Position numbers: made by a program. This document shows positions 24,001 to 36,000 of a stretch of DNA of 62,835 nt, in pieces. The stretch comes from Fibrobacteria bacterium (lineage in GTDB: Bacteria; Fibrobacterota; Fibrobacteria; UBA11236). Each line of letters begins with the position of its first letter. Positions within the stretch are counted from its first letter, which is position 1. The stretch spans positions 1-62,835 of the forward strand of contig JBGTHM010000123.1 of the NCBI GenBank assembly GCA_041746255.1, read 5' to 3'.

Positions 24001-27000
24001 GAAAATCAGGGACTTCAGGCAGGTTCCCTTTCGGAAAAAGCGGCTGTATCCGCTTCTGGGTCGGCATCCGCTCAGCCTCTCTTCGAGGTGGAAAATCTTC
24101 GCGCCCATTATCGCACCCGTTTCGGTGAAACCATACATGCCGTCGACGGCGTTTCTTTTACCCTGAACGCCGGAGAAGTGCTCGGCATCGCAGGGGAATC
24201 GGGTTGCGGAAAATCGACCTTGGTGAGCGCGGCCATGGGCCTATTTCAACCGCCCTTGCATTATACTTCCGGCGCCATCCGACTCGAAGGTGTGGATTTG
24301 GTGAAATTGGATAAGGAGTCGCACCGCCGCGACATTTTGGGACGCCGCATCGCCATGATTCCCCAGGGCGCTTTGAACTCGCTTAATCCCACCCGCCGCG
24401 TGCGCGATTTCGCAGCTGACGCGGTACTGAGCCACTTTCCCGAAATGCGCCGCAACGACATCAAGGCAAAATTGCGAGAGCGCTTCGCCCGCATCGGATT
24501 GTCGGAGCGCGTACTCGATGCGTATCCAGTGCAGCTTTCCGGCGGGATGAAGCAACGCGTTGTCATCGCCGTCTCCACTTTGATGAATCCCAAGGTGGTC
24601 ATCGCCGACGAATCCACTTCGGCGCTCGACGTTTCGACGCAGAAGTCGGTTATCGAAATGATTTTCGATTTGATGGACAAGGATATCATTTCCAGCATGA
24701 TATTCATCACGCATGAACTTCCCCTCTTAAGCCATATCGCCAACCGTATCGCCGTCATGTATGCAGGTGAATTCGTGGAAATAGGCGATACGCGTCAGGT
24801 CATAGACGATCCCCGCCATCCCTATTCCCAGGCTTTGATGCACTCCATGCTGTTGGCTGAACCGGGAGCGCGCGACGAAAAGCCGGTGACCATTCCCGGC
24901 GCTCCCCCGAATCTGCAAGAGCCTCCCGAGGGTTGCCGTTTTTCCGAGCGATGCCCGGTGGCGCGCCAAGGAGTTTGCGAGCTCACGCGGCAGGAATTGA
25001 TTCCCGTGGCGGGACGTCAGGTGAGGTGCCAATATGCCGACTGAAATCCATTCCGTAAAACCGGTCATTTCGGCCCGGGGTCTCACTTGCGCCTTTGGCC
25101 AGGGAAAAGATCGTTTTACCGCCGTCGACGCCGTCGATTTCGAGGTGGCGGACCAGGAAATCATTTCCATTGTGGGAGAGTCCGGTAGCGGAAAGACTAC
25201 CCTCGCCAAAATGTTGCTGGGCCTGCAAAAGCCGACCGCAGGCGAACTCCTTTTCCTGGATCGACCGGCGGCCAAGGGAGCCGCGCATTGGCGTCTTATC
25301 CAAGCCGTATTCCAGGATCCCTTTTCCTGTTTCAACCAGTTCTTCACCATCAAAAGCCAATTAGGCGCGGCCTTCAAACTTTTCGGAAAAAAATTCAGCG
25401 AGGAAGAAAAGCGCTGCCGCATCGACGAAGCCTTGCGCGCGGTGAACATGGAACCGGATAAGCTCGAAGGCAAATACCCGTTCGAATTATCCGGGGGCCA
25501 GATGCAAAGGCTGCTTTTGGCCCGGGTCTTTCTTATCGAACCCCGCATCCTGGTGGCCGATGAGCCCACGAGCATGGTGGATGCCTGCAGCCGCGCCAAT
25601 ATCCTGGATTTTCTGCTCGATTTGAAAAAACAACGCGGGATGACCATCATTTTCATCACCCACGACATCGGGTTGGCCTATTATGTGAGCGATCGAATTT
25701 TTATTATGCATCGCGGGCGCATCGTTGAACAAGGTCCGCCCGATGAGGTGATTCTCCATCCTCGGGATGAGTATACGCGTAGGCTACTGAATGACGTGCC
25801 CACGCTGGGTCGCCCCTGGTTTGCACGCTCCAAGCCGAATCGGGGGATTTCTGAGGCTAAGGAAAGTATTTCCGGTTTTTCTTGACTTATTTGGCGGAAA
25901 AATCAAACCCATCACTCCGAGTTGCCCACTAAGGGGCCAGGAACCCAAGGGAGATAGCTTGTGAACAAGGCATTGGCGAAAGCCGCGCCCTGGATTTTTT
26001 TTAGTGCCTGGATGGGAGCTTCGGCCAACCCCGGACCGGTAGCCGTCGATTCGGCTTTGGCCGGGATGGAGTCCTCGCTTGGTCGCGTCGAGTCCAAAGT
26101 ACTTTCCACCTTGATGTTCGGCGGCTCCAGCCCCGTTTCTTTCTCGGGAGAGGCGCGCCTTAAAATCCAGGACCATAACTTCACCGATTACCCGCCCTTT
26201 CTCACCGATAACCAGACCTGGACCGCCGCCAACTGGGAAGGAAATGAATCTTTCCTCCGGCTGGGCATGGTAGTGCGCCCCAACCGCAATACCGTGCTCT
26301 GGTCCAAAATCGGATTTCAGCATACCCTCCCAGGCAACTATCTCAATCCCCAACAAGCACGGATGGGCCCCGATGGATTTACGCCCATCCAAACCCGTCA
26401 CGATAAGAGTGAGGAAACGGCAAACATTCATGAAGACATGTCGGCGGGCATCGCTTTGCGCACCATACCCGCGTCGTTCTGGTTACGCATGGGTAACGTA
26501 CTTTGGACCGAGGCCTCACCTCTGACCATTTGGAAGGCGCAACCCCGTACCTTCGCCTGGGATTACCTCCCCTTTGAAGTAGAACAGCCTATCGCGCGCT
26601 ATTATGAATACAACGTCGCGAAGGGGGAAAAATCCGGACGGGCTGCCTGGAACAAAAAACCCTTCAACGGCGTCAATCTGGAAAGTATCAACCTGCCTGC
26701 AGACCTTTATTTCAACTTTCTGTATGCGGGGTTTGAGCGCTACGACAATTTCGAACGTGAATTCATCGATTGGTCCAACGATCTGGGTTATGCGGGGCTC
26801 GGCACGGAGGCCAAGGGCCGCGGCATAGGCGATAGCTACCGGCGCGCGATTCATGGGCGGGTGGCACATGCGAAAACCGTGGGAGGGCTGTCCCTGGGCG
26901 TGAACTATGCCGGTACGCGTTATCAACCCAGTATCGTGAATCAAACCTTGTGGAGGGTGAACTTCGGTTTGCGGGATACCTTGGTTATCGATCCCGTATC

Positions 27001-33000: not shown

Positions 33001-36000
33001 CCCCAAACCCTTTCACAGGTAAACGCTCTCTTCGTGGCGGATTATCTCGGAATGCTGACGCGCCATAATATCGAACAGGCTTCCTATTGGGATATTCATA
33101 ACGACATTACGGACCAAGGCGGCGACTATGGTTATCTCTCCCGTACCGGCGCCCCGGATGGCGACAACGTTCCCCGGCCTTCGTATTTCGCCTTCAAATT
33201 GGCCAGCGAAAGTCTGCGCGGAAGGCTGGTCGATTGCGCTTCGGATGATGAAAACGTAACCTGCTACCTCTCCGAAAAAGACGGAAAGCATGCGATGCTG
33301 GTAGTCAATAAGTTTCCGGCTACTGACGCGGTGGTAACTTTGAAAATTCCCGGCGTGGCGGGAAAGGCGACGATGAAACAGCTACGCGAAGATAATGCCA
33401 AAACCGGATATGCGGTCTCAACCATAACCGTCAAGGACGGAATGAAGCTCACTTTTCCCCGTTATTCCATAACCTCCATAGTTTTGGAATAGTTCTACAA
33501 TGGTTTGGTGCCTGGGATCCTCGGGCGACCCTCCCTGATTCGGCGCCGGTGCGATGGTTGCTATTCCTTCGCGTCGGCCTTTGGGAAATCCGGCTCGTCG
33601 CCTCCGGTTAATCCCGCTTGTTGCAAAAACTCAAGGGTTTTTTCCAGCAATTCGGGGGGCGGCTCATTCAGACTGCGGAATTCACTCGCGTCGGCGGCGG
33701 CTTTGTAGAGTAATAAATATTCGCGGCAGCGCTTACACAGCGAGATATGGGCCTCGAAACGCATGACCAGCCATTGCGATGGCAAGTTGCCTTCCGCATA
33801 ATCGTAAATAAAATCGGCGATGCGCTCACAGCGCATGAAAGCCATACCCAGCAAACCTTTCATGCCGCGCTTTTCCCCTTGCCGTTTTCCGTTCGACCGT
33901 GCATCAAGTCACGCACCTTATCCACAATGGCTTGGCGGGATCGGTGCAGTCGGACTCGCACCGCTACGGGGGAGATTCCCAGAATTTCCGCCACGTCCTC
34001 CCCGGATAACCCTTCGATATCGCGCAAAAAATAGATTTCAAAGGCCGACGGGGGTAACAACGCCACCGAACGCGCAATCAAGGTGCGAAGTGCGGATTGA
34101 AAAACCACTTTGTCCGGCGGTAACTCCCAGGGGGTCGATTTGTCCCAATCGGCCAGGTCGAGCGAACCGGGGGTTTCCGGCGCCGGATGCGATTCGTCGA
34201 GCTCAAGCATACGGCGATGCTTATCTCCCAAGCGATCGCAGACTTTATTGTGAGCCAACCCGTAAATCCAGGTGGTCAGCTTCGATTTTCCCTCGAAGCG
34301 GGGTAGGCTTTTATGTACGCCTAGGTAGACCTCTTGCAAAACTTCCTGACCTTCGTCATGGGAGGAAATGAATTTGCGGATATAGTTCATAAGCGGACCA
34401 TGCGTAACTTCGACCAAACGCTTGAAGGCTTGCTGGCGGACAGAGCCCGTTTCACGCAGGCTTTCCAAAAAGGAGGCCTGATTCACTTCATCGAAGGGCT
34501 GAGGGGGGTCGGTTTCTCGGTTACCCGACAAGTCCACCCCCTCGACGGATTCCACCGACCCGCCGGGGTCCCTATCAAGTTGCTGCATGTAAGTCTTTCA
34601 TCCTCTGAACAAGTTACTCTCTATTTCGCCGGAGGCCAAAACCGCAAAACCGCTAAAATCGAGTTAAAAGCAGGGTGGATTTGAATTTAGCCATAACTTG
34701 TTAAATTTCCGGGTATTGGAAAAAGCTCGCCCCCACCGGTTATCGACGGGTGGAGCCGAAGCCTTATTTTCTAAAGGCCGTTACCAGGCCGGGAAAGGAA
34801 AATTACTGCGATGAAATTAATGGTTTTCTCGGAAAACAACAGCCTACGGAAACAGGTGGAAGATTTGCTGACTTCCACGCCCCACAATTTTGAAACCTTC
34901 AATTTGCAGTCCATTTTGTCGCGCGAAAAAGCCGCCGGATTCGATGGACTCCTTATCGACCATGAAAGCTGGCAGCGATGCACGGTGCTTTTCCGTTACT
35001 TCGGCGTATTGGATGTACTTAACGGTAAACCACTGTTGGTGATGAGCAAATCGAAGAAACTTCCGGGAATGAAAATGCGGAGCGGTAAGGCTCCCACCTT
35101 GCATGCCACTTTTCCTTCCAATACGGACGATTTCTACACTGCTCTGCAGCAAATGTCCAATTCGCTCGTAACGGCGTGAATTCAGACCGGCCGCGCGATG
35201 CGCGACCCGATAAAAAAAAGGAGTGGTTCAGAACCTGGTTCGGACCCTCCTACAAGTCCATCTATTCCCATCGAGACCGCTCCCAGGCACGGACCCAGGT
35301 TAAGTCCGTGCTTCACGCGACGGCCCTTCCGCTTCACGCCCGAGTTCTCGATATTGGGTGCGGAGCAGGGCGGCATTTGCAGGCCTTTCGTGACGAGGGT
35401 TTTGCGGATTCCCTTGGCTTCGATTTGAGCCATACCCTTCTCCTGGACGCCTTGGCAGCCGGCCTTAAGGTGGCCAGAGCGGATATGCGCAATTCCCCTT
35501 TCCGCGATGGTACTTTCGACTTGGTTACTTGCTTTTTCACCTCCTTCGGATATTTCGAAACCCAGGAGGAAGATCGCAACGCCTTATGCGGATTCGCCAG
35601 GCTGCTGCGTCCTCATGGCCGGCTTTTCCTGGACCTTATCAACCGTGATTTTCTGACCCGGGAATTCGTACCTTACGACGAGAAAGTAAAGGGCGACATG
35701 ACGGTGACGCAGAAAAGACGTCTGGACGGATCGGTGATCATCAAGGACATCGAGATATTCCGGCAGGGCGAATTACTGGAAGTCCATCAAGAAAGGGTGC
35801 GGCTTTATTCCTTGCAGGAATTCGAATTGATGGCCGAGAAGTGCCGGCTGAAATTGGAATGCCTATTCGGTTCCGAACGGGGAGAGGCCTACCACCCGGA
35901 AGAATCGCAGCGTATGGCCATGCTCTTTAAACCGGTACTATGAGGCGGCTTTTCCCATGAATATCCAACGTCACGCCGCCGTTTCCCCGGAAACGGGAGG

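Follow-up and report, generated by a model that had tools for sequence, protein, structure and literature searches.

By what route do fragments of cellulose cross the outer membrane of bacteria of the Fibrobacter group? Passages in two papers (PMC6851124, PMC4668043) still call this step of F. succinogenes cellodextrin uptake unknown. The window analyzed here, a contig of 62,835 nucleotides from a Fibrobacteria bacterium, carries a three-gene module (25961-33492) in which two proteins of no named family, B and A, are encoded ahead of a cellulose-binding protein, C. Because a CBM30 protein is the constant neighbor of this pair, and a sugar importer and a cellodextrin phosphorylase are frequent ones, A and B appear to be the best candidates yet for such a route. 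Newly described here are the co-occurrence of B, A and CBM30, the order of their genes, the importer and GH94 neighbors, a second clade of the module and the identities of its counterparts in F. succinogenes S85. The argument is built from gene content, gene order, co-occurrence and predicted barrel folds, together with the published high constitutive expression and outer-membrane-fraction recovery of the S85 proteins.

Genes of the module

The open reading frames of B (25961-28249, + strand; 762 aa, GTG start, type-1 clade), A (28293-30287, +; 664 aa counted from the first ATG, 657 aa in its database form) and C (30316-33492, +; 1058 aa) lie where a preliminary description had placed them. 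A and B are unrelated to each other, and their reported lack of any family is confirmed: profile searches gave no Pfam or NCBIfam match for A and none above threshold for B, the latter having a sub-threshold OMP_b-brl match at residues 598-750 (E 1.2e-3; 19.5 bits against a cut-off of 28.7). As had been described, both proteins have signal-peptide-like N-termini and an aromatic end, in each case a final Phe that is invariant in the 50-sequence alignment. Conversely, the N-terminal coiled coil once attributed to them amounts to one short helix predicted with low confidence (pLDDT 44-55). C is a Cel51A-like lipoprotein of the domain composition originally proposed, consisting of a signal peptide, the lipobox LLVSAC, a conserved N-terminal strand motif (SLKFQPLPK), a linker, two CBM30 stretches (E 4.5e-14), a CBM11 domain (CBM_11, E 1e-19) and a C-terminal GH51-like domain matching solved GH51 arabinofuranosidases (E 7e-18).

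Both enzymatic and transport neighbors noted previously are also present. A whole Opp/Dpp-type ABC importer (20227-25885, +) lies directly upstream of B-A-C, beginning with a periplasmic family 5 solute-binding protein of the Opp/Dpp type (20227..22089, +; Pfam SBP_bac_5, E 2e-53) and continuing with two permease genes (22143-23162 and 23159-23992, +; Pfam BPD_transp_1, E 8e-42 and 1e-23; OppC_N) and two ATPase genes (23887-25044 and 25034-25885, +; Pfam ABC_tran plus oligo_HPY), the last of which is separated from the B start by 75 nt. A GH5 cellulase gene (18908-19978, -; Pfam Cellulase, E 1e-44) is the divergent neighbor.

Conservation of the module and its neighbors

Patterns of type-1 B recovered 55 related loci, a sample that is consequently biased towards the type-1 clade. 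A follows B in 50 of the 51 loci with at least 300 nt beyond B, and the first CBM30 domain of C comes next in all 44 loci with at least 2900 nt, which bears out the B-A-C order proposed earlier. With at least 5300 nt available, 36 of 37 loci also show a GH51 domain downstream. Of 37 loci with sufficient room, 24 have an Opp-type importer, detected by its SBP_bac_5 homolog, in the 10 kb upstream of B (15 on the same strand, 9 divergent); of the 13 that lack it, three (L012, L014 and L063) have a CUT1-type SBP_bac_1 importer at that position. In a downstream survey covering 76 of 120 flank ORFs, 13 of 27 long loci had a GH94 cellobiose/cellodextrin phosphorylase gene as the next one after C, on C's strand, and 5 of 27 had a GT35 phosphorylase gene there, while GH9 cellulases lie near the module in 9 loci. 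The GH5 cellulase has no homolog in the 55 related loci and is not a conserved module member, and none of the window's other neighbors beyond the importer is conserved across these loci. As judged from these gene neighborhoods, the CBM30 protein is the sole constant partner of B-A, and with the binding-protein-dependent sugar importers and GH94 phosphorylase as frequent neighbors the set amounts to a complete cellodextrin route.

The phylum-wide conservation previously suggested is equally apparent, as B is encoded by 230, A by 227 and CBM30 by 234 of 296 Fibrobacterota genomes with nearly identical tallies per family, even if the non-independence of related genomes means that such counts overstate the support. 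A and B are absent from 66-69 of the 296 genomes, fully complete ones included, and only where CBM30 is absent too. The complete genomes in which all three are jointly absent are G265 (own genus, 100% complete), G260 (100%), G263 (99%) and 11 of the 12 genomes of genus g6. The partner itself is variable: it may be a CBM30-CBM30-CBM11-GH51 protein of about 1050 aa, a 630-657 aa form lacking GH51 or a single CBM30 of 250-285 aa, and B-A is unchanged across all of these forms. Since the partners of some families are devoid of any GH51 domain, the constant element is the CBM30 array rather than the cellulase.

A second clade and its counterparts in F. succinogenes S85

The second copy of the module reported on contig C11 of the same genome was found as well, comprising a CBM30-only protein (284 aa), B' (797 aa), A' (704 aa) and A'' (696 aa). 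Its depiction as a chitin locus is accurate with respect to GH18 and GH20, but two Alginate_lyase-type genes and one PL14 gene are also located there. A B-A-A' layout with a small CBM30-only protein typifies a second clade, being found in 76 of 76 places in family f6; unlike in the window module, Cel51A itself is unlinked to B/A. In G190, for example, the Cel51A-type protein is encoded 1.9 Mb from the B/A genes. F. succinogenes has Cel51A (EG2/CelF) as its major cellulose-binding endoglucanase, and C shares with it the domain order CBM30-CBM30-CBM11-GH51; identity between C and the G190 Cel51A-type protein is 48%. However, the latter has a plain signal peptide with neither linker nor strand motif, whereas C is a predicted lipoprotein possessing both and is encoded right after B-A. 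The initial view of the barrels as welded to Cel51A is thus valid for one of the two clades. F. succinogenes seems to fall in a genus whose Cel51A is unlinked and in which the partner is the small CBM30-only FSU_2007.

The S85 proteins FSU_2007, FSU_2008 and FSU_2010 are identical to second-clade proteins encoded by G190, and FSU_2009 lies between them. FSU_2007-FSU_2010 (= Fisuc_1525-1528) have the architecture of the C11 module, with FSU_2007 as the CBM30 partner, FSU_2008 as a type-2 B and FSU_2009/FSU_2010 as A-type proteins; they belong to the other B clade than the window's B, their linked partner is CBM30-only rather than Cel51A, and they have no ABC importer next to them. Contrary to the statement that their proteomic behavior was unknown, all four are present in published transcriptome and envelope data sets, where, with no function assigned, they go under no other names than hypothetical, membrane or cellulose-binding proteins. 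Fisuc_1525-1528 are expressed at rlog 11.35-11.87 (CV 1.5-2.0%), above genes that the authors put beyond the 90th percentile (10.79-12.07), and are hardly cellulose-responsive (fold changes of +1.11 for FSU_2008 and -1.26 for FSU_2007), the latter being a point against a role in uptake. The envelope proteome contains all four, and in the published fractionation B, A and A' were recovered in outer-membrane as well as extracellular fractions and not in the periplasm, while the CBM30 protein was found in the extracellular medium only.

Such constitutive abundance, together with recovery in outer-membrane and extracellular (possibly vesicle) fractions, is what one might expect if B-A were a scaffold of a cellulose-binding surface layer or of vesicles with no channel function. 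FSU_2007 is cited as belonging to the cellulose-binding proteins of the outer membrane described by Jun et al. 2007, and the UniProt accessions of FSU_2009 and FSU_2010 share one A7UG series, conceivably because they came from the same study. Nevertheless, an anchor has no need of 22-26-strand barrels in which the inner aromatic segments are highly conserved, and the linkage to importers and phosphorylase points to uptake, which makes a purely structural role unlikely. High constitutive expression would likewise suit general diffusion porins of the phylum that are found beside carbohydrate genes merely by chance, as would the generic OMP_b-brl matches of the C-terminal hairpins (19 of 50 A and 9 of 50 B sequences by hmmscan). 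Yet porins would hardly be missing from complete genomes solely where CBM30 is missing too, nor keep their gene order with a CBM30 protein in 44/44 and 76/76 places, and this option is already very unlikely.

Predicted structures

AlphaFold models built with 50-sequence alignments predict that both proteins are plugless barrels beginning right after the short helix, with about 22 strands in A (pLDDT 83.4, pTM 0.82) and about 24-26 in B (pLDDT 69.2, pTM 0.70). These models are better than those of the preliminary description. A has a conserved 106-residue insert (376-481) between strands. In B, conservation peaks in long aromatic-rich inter-strand segments and not in the strands, the most conserved part being segment 191-234 (0.89), in which 9 of 44 residues are aromatic. 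As the most conserved B loops are modeled at pLDDT below 50, we infer their position in the lumen from topology. The top structural matches are barrel portions of TonB-dependent transporters and ushers, such as FyuA for A (Z 13.7, 385 aligned, rmsd 5.2) and the SusC-like BT1762-1763 chain 5t3r_D for B (Z 13.0, 406 aligned, rmsd 5.3); Foldseek ranks FimD first for A (E 4.6e-10). These matches are generic, with TM-scores of 0.2-0.4 and Z values of 10-13 common to dozens of unrelated barrels, and the models resemble many outer-membrane barrels equally. Throughout Fibrobacterota, B and A form a pair of predicted outer-membrane barrels.

AlgE and Wzi (Z about 12) are among the structural matches, and by language-model features the nearest named neighbors are DUF6029 and an 'alginate export'-named cluster, i.e. 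polysaccharide-conducting or export barrels. The likeness to polysaccharide-conducting barrels suits uptake, but also raises the question of whether B-A could export a beta-glucan or other exopolysaccharide in the manner of AlgE, Wzi or BcsC, with C as a BcsZ-like trimming glucanase. We consider this extremely unlikely, given that hmmscan, with E allowed up to 0.1, matched none of the A and B sequences to Alginate_exp, Wzi or DUF6029, that the conserved module has no synthase, polymerase, OPX or PCP gene and that its neighbors, binding-protein-dependent importers and a phosphorylase, are catabolic.

The protein-enclosing barrels LptD, MtrB and ushers also occur among the matches, in keeping with a possible, if rather doubtful, role of B-A in carrying CBM30 proteins to the surface and holding them there without conducting sugar, modeled on Slam, LptD-LptE or the RcsF-OmpA plug-and-barrel arrangement. 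The co-occurrence of CBM30 with B and A is just as strict as that between B and A themselves, which fits anchoring equally well as uptake. The small CBM30 proteins of G190 and C11 have a signal peptide and no lipobox Cys, yet the S85 one occurs extracellularly as well as in preparations of the envelope. The lipobox Cys is present in 28 of 40 aligned C proteins and missing from the other 12; most of the 40 retain the strand-like motif after the signal peptide (e.g. LQFKPLK, WLKFKPLKK; shortened in three), and the unlinked G190 Cel51A-type protein has neither motif nor linker. Still, the motif may be a mere N-terminal extension of the CBM30 fold and docking is putative, two or three different barrels would be unusual for one anchor, and anchoring leaves unexplained why binding-protein-dependent importers of two types, as well as a GH94 phosphorylase, stay with the module. 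Anchoring and uptake are mutually compatible.

A putative route for cellodextrins

Based upon gene context, B-A and the CBM30 protein could constitute a putative TonB-independent outer-membrane complex that captures and imports cellodextrins, a proposal whose chances we regard as even. First, a surface CBM30-bearing protein, here the Cel51A-like enzyme C and elsewhere a CBM-only protein, would capture single glucan chains or cellodextrins, which the GH51 domain, where present, would also cut. The fragments would then traverse the outer membrane via the large plugless barrels B and/or A, whose long, conserved stretches between strands, rich in aromatic residues, probably turn inwards to give the lumen a sugar-binding constriction or gate. 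Lastly, a periplasmic binding protein and ABC importer, followed by cytoplasmic GH94 phosphorolysis, would hold the gradient downhill. B, A and the CBM30 protein would form a complex, and we infer the conducting barrel (B and/or A), its substrate and its gating; threading of whole glucan chains is pure speculation. The conduit originally envisaged thus retains its context (a Fibrobacterota-wide pair, a CBM30 partner and importer/GH94 neighbors), but not the Cel51A link in the F. succinogenes genus or the constancy of GH51. Against uptake, a barrel of 22-26 strands that has no plug would leak unless something occluded it. A TonB-independent mechanism must also be weighed against the TonB-dependent cellodextrin route proposed by Raut et al. 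2019; canonical TonB-dependent transporters are present, with 7 Plug matches in G000 and 4 in G190.

Comparison with known systems

FimD/PapC ushers, LptD-LptE and MtrB-MtrA are 24-26-strand barrels closed by an inserted domain or partner protein. Their likeness to A and B is one of barrel size only (TM-score 0.23-0.37), as A and B are devoid of the usher N-/C-terminal periplasmic domains, a PF00577 match or the LptD N-terminal jellyroll. LamB maltoporin, ChiP chitoporin, CymA and OprB are TonB-independent passive oligosaccharide channels having aromatic sugar-binding tracks, and they are encoded with a matching ABC importer and periplasmic binding protein. However, they have 14-18 strands and defined Pfam families, in contrast to about 22 strands in A, 24-26 in B and no family match, and they are not known to have a CBM partner.

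By analogy with the SusC/SusD 'utilisome' of Bacteroidota, A-B may be the Fibrobacterota-specific outer-membrane part of cellodextrin (beta-glucan oligosaccharide) acquisition, similar to a Sus-type system operating independently of TonB, an idea that could as readily prove wrong as right. Profile searches detected no plug domain, TonB box region or SusD-like protein for B-A, the one SusC barrel is replaced by two or three unrelated ones, the binding partner is a CBM30 beta-sandwich and the inner-membrane step is an ABC importer. Despite these differences, in both cases single-glycan loci encode a barrel together with two surface proteins, one that binds the glycan and one glycanase, paralogous copies exist in other glycan loci, and a SusC barrel, 5t3r_D, is among the best structural matches of B.

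Conserved organization of the locus

In the window, three closely spaced genes occupy, on the forward strand, the places that the preliminary description had assigned to them: B (25961-28249, 762 aa) and A (28293-30287, 664 aa, 43 nt after B), both encoding predicted outer-membrane barrels, and C (30316-33492, 1058 aa, 28 nt after A), encoding a Cel51A-like CBM30 protein. A five-gene Opp/Dpp-type ABC importer on the same strand (20227-25885) ends 75 nt upstream of B and, according to Pfam, consists in order of an SBP_bac_5 protein, two BPD_transp_1 permeases, and two ABC_tran ATPases with oligo_HPY domains. 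A GH5 cellulase (18908-19978) is encoded divergently and an ECF sigma factor (33860-34588) convergently. A promoter and terminator scan of positions 17500-35500 returned counts at the level of shuffled sequence and did not delimit the operon.

A pattern search with the B alignment, limited to one genome per species, recovered 55 loci, all metagenome-assembled and nearly all labelled Fibrobacterota, which are biased toward the clade with the B-A-C layout (type 1) because the search patterns were derived from its B. A follows B in 50 of the 51 loci with sufficient room on the contig, the exception being L060, where A lies farther off, and all 44 loci with room for it have the first CBM30 domain of C next, so the gene order B, A, CBM30 reported earlier holds across these loci. 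A GH51 domain comes next in 36/37 loci with room, L056 being the one that lacks it. Of the 37 loci with room upstream of B, 24 encode an Opp-type importer within 10 kb (15 on the strand of B and 9 divergently), and in three of the 13 Opp-less loci (L012, L014, and L063) a CUT1-type SBP_bac_1 importer lies directly upstream of B. Some permeases of these CUT1-type importers are unusually long (612-641 aa). Among the 27 loci of at least 19 kb, for which 76 of 120 flanking ORFs were scanned, C is immediately followed on its own strand by a gene for a GH94 cellobiose/cellodextrin phosphorylase in 13 loci and by one for a GT35 phosphorylase in five, with GH9 cellulases near the module in nine and GH1 and GH3 genes once each. 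From these counts, the conserved unit comprises the importer, B, A, and the CBM30 protein, often together with a phosphorylase, which is the gene set that would be expected to bring cellodextrins from the cell surface into the cytoplasm.

Genes for GH5, CitMHS, G6PD, glucokinase, the ECF sigma factor, a methyltransferase, and BshC were also considered as module members and rejected, as no homologue was found in the 55 loci, bar one weak ECF match. Three of the module loci (L051, L060, and L061) come from genomes titled "Thermodesulfovibrionales," "Draconibacterium orientale," and "bacterium" (G297, G296, and G298, respectively), for which a binning error or gene transfer is possible.

Phyletic distribution

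The survey covered 296 Fibrobacterota genomes, including one unpublished genome (G254) positive for all three components. Of these, 230 have B, 227 have A, and 234 have the first CBM30 domain; the corresponding numbers for the 172 high-quality genomes are 140, 139, and 142. The tallies of B, A, and CBM30 are likewise nearly identical family by family: 146, 145, and 150 of 151 genomes in f6, 34, 35, and 36 of 46 in f13, all 12 of 12 in f8, and 14, 13, and 13 of 31 in f1, with all three absent from f3, f7, f9, f12, f19, f20, and f21. The few mismatches that could be traced sit at contig ends (G261, G031, and G057). Within the window's family, B, A, and CBM30 are absent together from complete genomes in no fewer than four genera: G265 from the window's genus (100% complete), G260 (100%), G255 (97%), G263 (99%), and 11 of the 12 genomes of genus g6. 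As related genomes are not independent, this co-occurrence is a pattern rather than a statistic.

Sequence and predicted fold of the barrels

That A and B carry no family annotation, as the preliminary description stated, was confirmed: A has no Pfam or NCBIfam match, and the sole match of B is a sub-threshold OMP_b-brl at its C-terminus. When every alignment member was scanned, this generic model matched 19/50 A and 9/50 B sequences, and no specific barrel family was returned. The two proteins are also not detectably related to one another, as BLASTP gave an E of 0.65 and hhalign of both alignments a probability of 1.4%. The B family is small, since its profile found only 200 proteins at E up to 1e-3 among 1.84 billion representatives, 68 of them at E up to 1e-30. 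The B profile also gave weak C-terminal matches to proteins of 590-800 aa.

AlphaFold2 models built from alignments of 50 homologues each reached pLDDT 83.4 and pTM 0.82 for A and pLDDT 69.2 and pTM 0.70 for B. In both models the signal-peptide helix is followed by one short helix of about 15-17 residues and then by beta-strands that run to the C-terminal residue, a Phe invariant in the A and B families alike, the modelled barrel beginning at residue 56-60 directly after the short helix. This helix is of low confidence and takes the place of the N-terminal coiled coil described previously, a feature that the models do not bear out. By our own reading of the DSSP strand pattern, rather than from the output of a tool, A has 22 strands with short periplasmic turns throughout and B about 24-26.

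Foldseek and VIA-align returned solely generic outer-membrane barrels for both proteins, with TM-scores of 0.2-0.4. The best VIA matches of A are the barrel of FyuA (Z 13.7, 385 residues aligned, rmsd 5.2), OccD2 (13.4), FimD (13.3), and BtuB (13.3), and those of B are the SusC-like BT1762-1763 barrel 5t3r_D (Z 13.0, 406 aligned, rmsd 5.3), FyuA (12.6), and FimD (12.3). Ushers and porins score within 1 Z unit of the best matches, which are barrels of TonB-dependent transporters, and the alignments to the latter start past their plugs, A and B being plugless. A TonB-dependent transporter was rejected for this reason, as the plug is absent from the sequences as well as from the models: neither Plug (PF07715) nor TonB_dep_Rec matched any of the 50 A and 50 B sequences at E up to 0.1, although the same Plug model does detect canonical transporters (seven matches in genome G000 and four in G190). 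Classical sugar porins of 16-18 strands (LamB, OprB, and ChiP/OprD) were ruled out, since A and B do not match the LamB, OprB, or OprD families of Pfam and more strands are modelled; Porin_4 matched 2/50 A sequences. Similarly, no usher Pfam family is matched and outside the barrel there is just the short N-terminal helix, which excludes a FimD/PapC-type usher, and an OmpM/SlpA-type attachment porin was dismissed given the lack of an SLH match and the presence of a single short helix in place of a long coiled-coil stalk.

A has some structural likeness to AlgE (Z 12.2) and Wzi (Z 11.9), and one B-like cluster was automatically named "alginate export" from language-model features, while hmmscan at E up to 0.1 found no Alginate_exp (PF13372), Wzi (PF14052), or DUF6029 (PF19494) domain in the 50 A and 50 B sequences. 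We consider the export of exopolysaccharides less likely than uptake, and the same holds for a pure scaffold and for a general porin, the last of which we reject. In terms of language-model features, A and B both lie closest, among named families, to DUF6029 (score 0.95), which the accessible part of PMC9603273 discusses as a plugless, Wzi-like candidate polysaccharide porin. A DUF6029 search of the window's own genome gave zero matches, yet the controls were equally silent, and this resemblance is a lead only.

Conservation in B peaks in long inter-strand segments and not in the strands. Residues 191-234 have a mean top-residue frequency of 0.89 and include nine aromatic residues among 44, and residues 434-475 and 513-534 are conserved at about 0.8, whereas conservation is lowest (0.15-0.54) in the long protruding hairpins at 338-420. 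A contains a conserved insert of 106 residues at 376-481. We infer that these B segments and the A insert may reach into the lumen and form a constriction or gate there, a region in which the models are of low confidence.

A second clade and its counterparts in F. succinogenes S85

The window's genome encodes another set on contig C11, in which a CBM30-only protein of 284 aa is accompanied by B' (797 aa), A' (704 aa), and A'' (696 aa). This second copy had been placed in a GH18/GH20 chitin locus; the module is indeed present and GH18 and GH20 genes do flank it, but so do two Alginate_lyase-type genes and a PL14 gene, and the designation thus fits in part. Just upstream of the CBM30-B-A-A module on C11 (L065, 14710-15771, reverse strand) lies a gene for a 353-aa protein without a Pfam family, the C-terminus of which, as we take it, resembles a type IX secretion sorting domain.

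The same layout of a small CBM30 protein, B, A, and A' (type 2) recurs in two complete genomes, G190 and G226, and in a more divergent form in G083 and G085. Of the 151 genomes of family f6, 143 have the small CBM30 gene, and by hand comparison it sits just upstream of B on the same contig and strand at all 76 of the f6 B places listed (75 genomes). In a quick maximum-likelihood tree built from 23 B sequences (the window B, every third other row of the B alignment, and six taken from fetched loci), each layout forms a clade of its own (SH-aLRT 100 for both), with long branches for G281 and G083. Neither a susC/susD pair nor any SusD-like or TonB-dependent receptor match was found among the 14 ORFs scanned at 20-41 kb of the window or the 26 ORFs of two type-2 loci, ruling out a PUL of the Bacteroidota type.

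Exact-sequence look-up showed three G190 proteins to be identical to FSU_2007 (A7UG43), FSU_2008, and FSU_2010 (A7UG48) of S85, recorded as "cellulose-binding protein," hypothetical, and "membrane protein," respectively. The S85 orthologs, previously unmapped, are hence FSU_2007 to FSU_2010 (Fisuc_1525-1528): a CBM30 partner, a B-type barrel, and two A-type barrels. FSU_2009 (A7UG47), between FSU_2008 and FSU_2010, is assigned to the outer membrane by pSortb in the portion of the Raut 2019 supplement available (PMC6851124). The S85 tables, as far as accessible, place a GH18 "chitinase" (FSU_2012) and a GH9 gene (FSU_2013) shortly after FSU_2010, and list the GH18 gene Fisuc_1530 at an rlog of 11.65, equal to the expression level of the module. 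At the type-2 locus of G190 (L064), a divergent GH5 cellulase gene (7928-9103, reverse strand) adjoins the CBM30 gene.

Fisuc_3109 and Fisuc_3110, located beside the S85 Cel51A, were considered as the B and A counterparts and rejected, as the A and B profiles match another place in G190. In that genome, the Cel51A-type gene is followed on its own strand by two ORFs (L070, 786-3661; 424 and 534 aa) that correspond in position to Fisuc_3110 and Fisuc_3109, both of which are hypothetical proteins of expression cluster 14 (rlog about 8.7). The C-terminal halves of the two ORF products look barrel-like by eye, and neither product is matched by the A or B profile.

The S85 proteins appear in several published data sets. 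Suen et al. 2011 (PMC3079729) describe FSU_2007/Fisuc_1525 as the sole CBM30-only protein of the genome, with unclear function. Raut et al. 2015 (PMC4619616), who cite Jun et al. 2007 for FSU_2007, report it in the envelope on all substrates, and Burnet et al. in the extracellular medium only. In Table S2 of Neumann et al. 2018 (PMC6204037), Fisuc_1525-1528 have mean rlog values of 11.35, 11.85, 11.65, and 11.87 with CVs of 1.5-2.0%, values higher than those of genes that the authors rank above the 90th percentile (10.79-12.07) and near that of cellodextrin phosphorylase (12.07); the neighboring GH5 gene Fisuc_1523 is cellulose-induced. Raut et al. 2019 (PMC6851124) detected all four proteins and give fold changes on cellulose relative to glucose of +1.11 for FSU_2008 and -1.26 for FSU_2007. 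No role is assigned to FSU_2007-2010 in the literature searched, which mostly excluded subscription journals.

Protein C and the CBM30 partners

C has the Cel51A-type domain order CBM30-CBM30-CBM11-GH51. Pfam detects two CBM30 stretches and a CBM_11, residues 721-888 match solved GH51 structures (E 7e-18), and residues 51-1033 are 48% identical to the Cel51A-type protein of G190. At least 90% of 40 aligned sequences share the motifs G773-N774-E775 and T885-E886-W887, and we presume them to hold the clan GH-A catalytic glutamates, with the acid/base in N-E and the nucleophile in T-E-W. The enzyme part is nonetheless not a constant feature, as B-A is followed by a CBM30-CBM30-CBM11 protein of 630-657 aa without GH51 in L056, L057, and L060 (where C has 630 aa and ends after CBM11) as well as in G054-G061, G065, G070, G071, and G073. 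The existence of such proteins in some families indicates that the enzyme part is dispensable in the module.

Directly after the signal peptide, most of the 40 aligned C proteins carry a strand-like motif (e.g., C-ALQFKPLK or WLKFKPLKK), which in the window spans 30427-30460 (residues 38-49), is shortened in L060, L062, and L063, lies upstream of the start of the Pfam CBM30 model, and precedes a low-complexity linker. The motif may serve as a docking strand, or it may extend the CBM30 fold. A lipobox Cys precedes it in 28/40 of the proteins and is absent from 12/40, and the small CBM30 proteins have no lipobox. These features bear upon the main rival to uptake, namely that the barrels export or anchor the CBM30 proteins. 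Such a role is favored by the 12 C proteins without a lipobox Cys, given that most sequences still have the strand-like motif, by the small CBM30 proteins, which lack a lipobox, yet in S85 yield an extracellular protein, and by the unlinked Cel51A-type protein of G190, from which both the motif and the linker are missing. We regard export or anchoring as rather unlikely, and it is compatible with uptake.

A candidate route for cellodextrins

Throughout these loci, the constant elements are two to three large plugless barrels and a CBM30 protein, while the enzyme part of the CBM30 protein (GH51, none, or a single CBM30 only) and the type of ABC importer both vary. This pattern fits a surface capture-and-entry device with interchangeable downstream partners, and we therefore place uptake first: that B and A, together with the CBM30 protein, serve the capture and entry of cellodextrins has, in our judgement, about an even chance of being correct. 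The cellodextrin context supports the interpretation offered earlier in part; the link is to CBM30 and not to Cel51A as such, the Cel51A-type gene being unlinked in both G190 (about 1.9 Mb away) and G226.

Binding of single chains by CBM30 is familiar from the CAZy literature and is also described by Suen et al. 2011 (PMC3079729). In the uptake scheme, the CBM30 array would bind single glucan chains or cellodextrins. GH51, where present, would cut the chains, and the fragments would pass the outer membrane via B and/or A, with the binding protein, the ABC importer, and phosphorolysis keeping the flux inward. A more specific form of this uptake scheme, possible but on balance doubtful, is that B, A (and A'), and the CBM30 protein form a hetero-oligomeric, TonB-independent, loop-gated outer-membrane machine, which would take up long cellodextrins or even single glucan chains stripped from cellulose and pass them straight to a periplasmic binding protein.

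Systems in which oligosaccharides enter through outer-membrane barrels are already known. The literature searched contains no description of the A and B families, of their pairing with one another and with a CBM30 protein, of their plugless size, or of their place in cellodextrin loci throughout the phylum. F. succinogenes is among the most effective cellulose degraders, and the accessible parts of PMC6851124 and PMC4668043 call its mechanism of cellodextrin transport, including how cellulose fragments cross the outer membrane, unknown or not delineated, suggesting TonB-dependent transporters or secretion systems and naming no channel. With FSU_2007 to FSU_2010, four concrete S85 genes can now be named, which are abundant, outer-membrane, and linked to cellulose binding, and whose relatives sit inside complete cellodextrin routes across the phylum, making the question directly testable. 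The B/A cassette also provides a marker for glycan loci in Fibrobacterota genomes, which offer no SusC/D pairs as a search handle. Should the machine proposed here exist, it would be the Fibrobacterota's own answer to SusCD, the CBM30+B+A cassette would mark a previously unrecognized kind of polysaccharide utilization locus, and paralogous cassettes might be tuned to other glycans, as in the GH18/GH20/lyase locus on C11.

Additional features of the window

Downstream of the module, consecutive forward-strand genes for BshC-like, PIG-L (BshB-like), and GT4 (BshA-like) proteins (35957-39488) resemble a bacillithiol synthesis cluster, of which we know of no description for this phylum. Upstream, an ORF of 904 aa (9437-12151, forward strand) combines a T6SS Hcp domain with an OmpA domain and a peptidoglycan-binding domain. 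GC skew is very high at positions 10001-12000 (0.258) compared with the rest of the window, and the GC content falls to 0.42-0.47 at 1-6000, 12001-14000, and 60001-62000 versus about 0.55 elsewhere, perhaps marking foreign or non-coding DNA.
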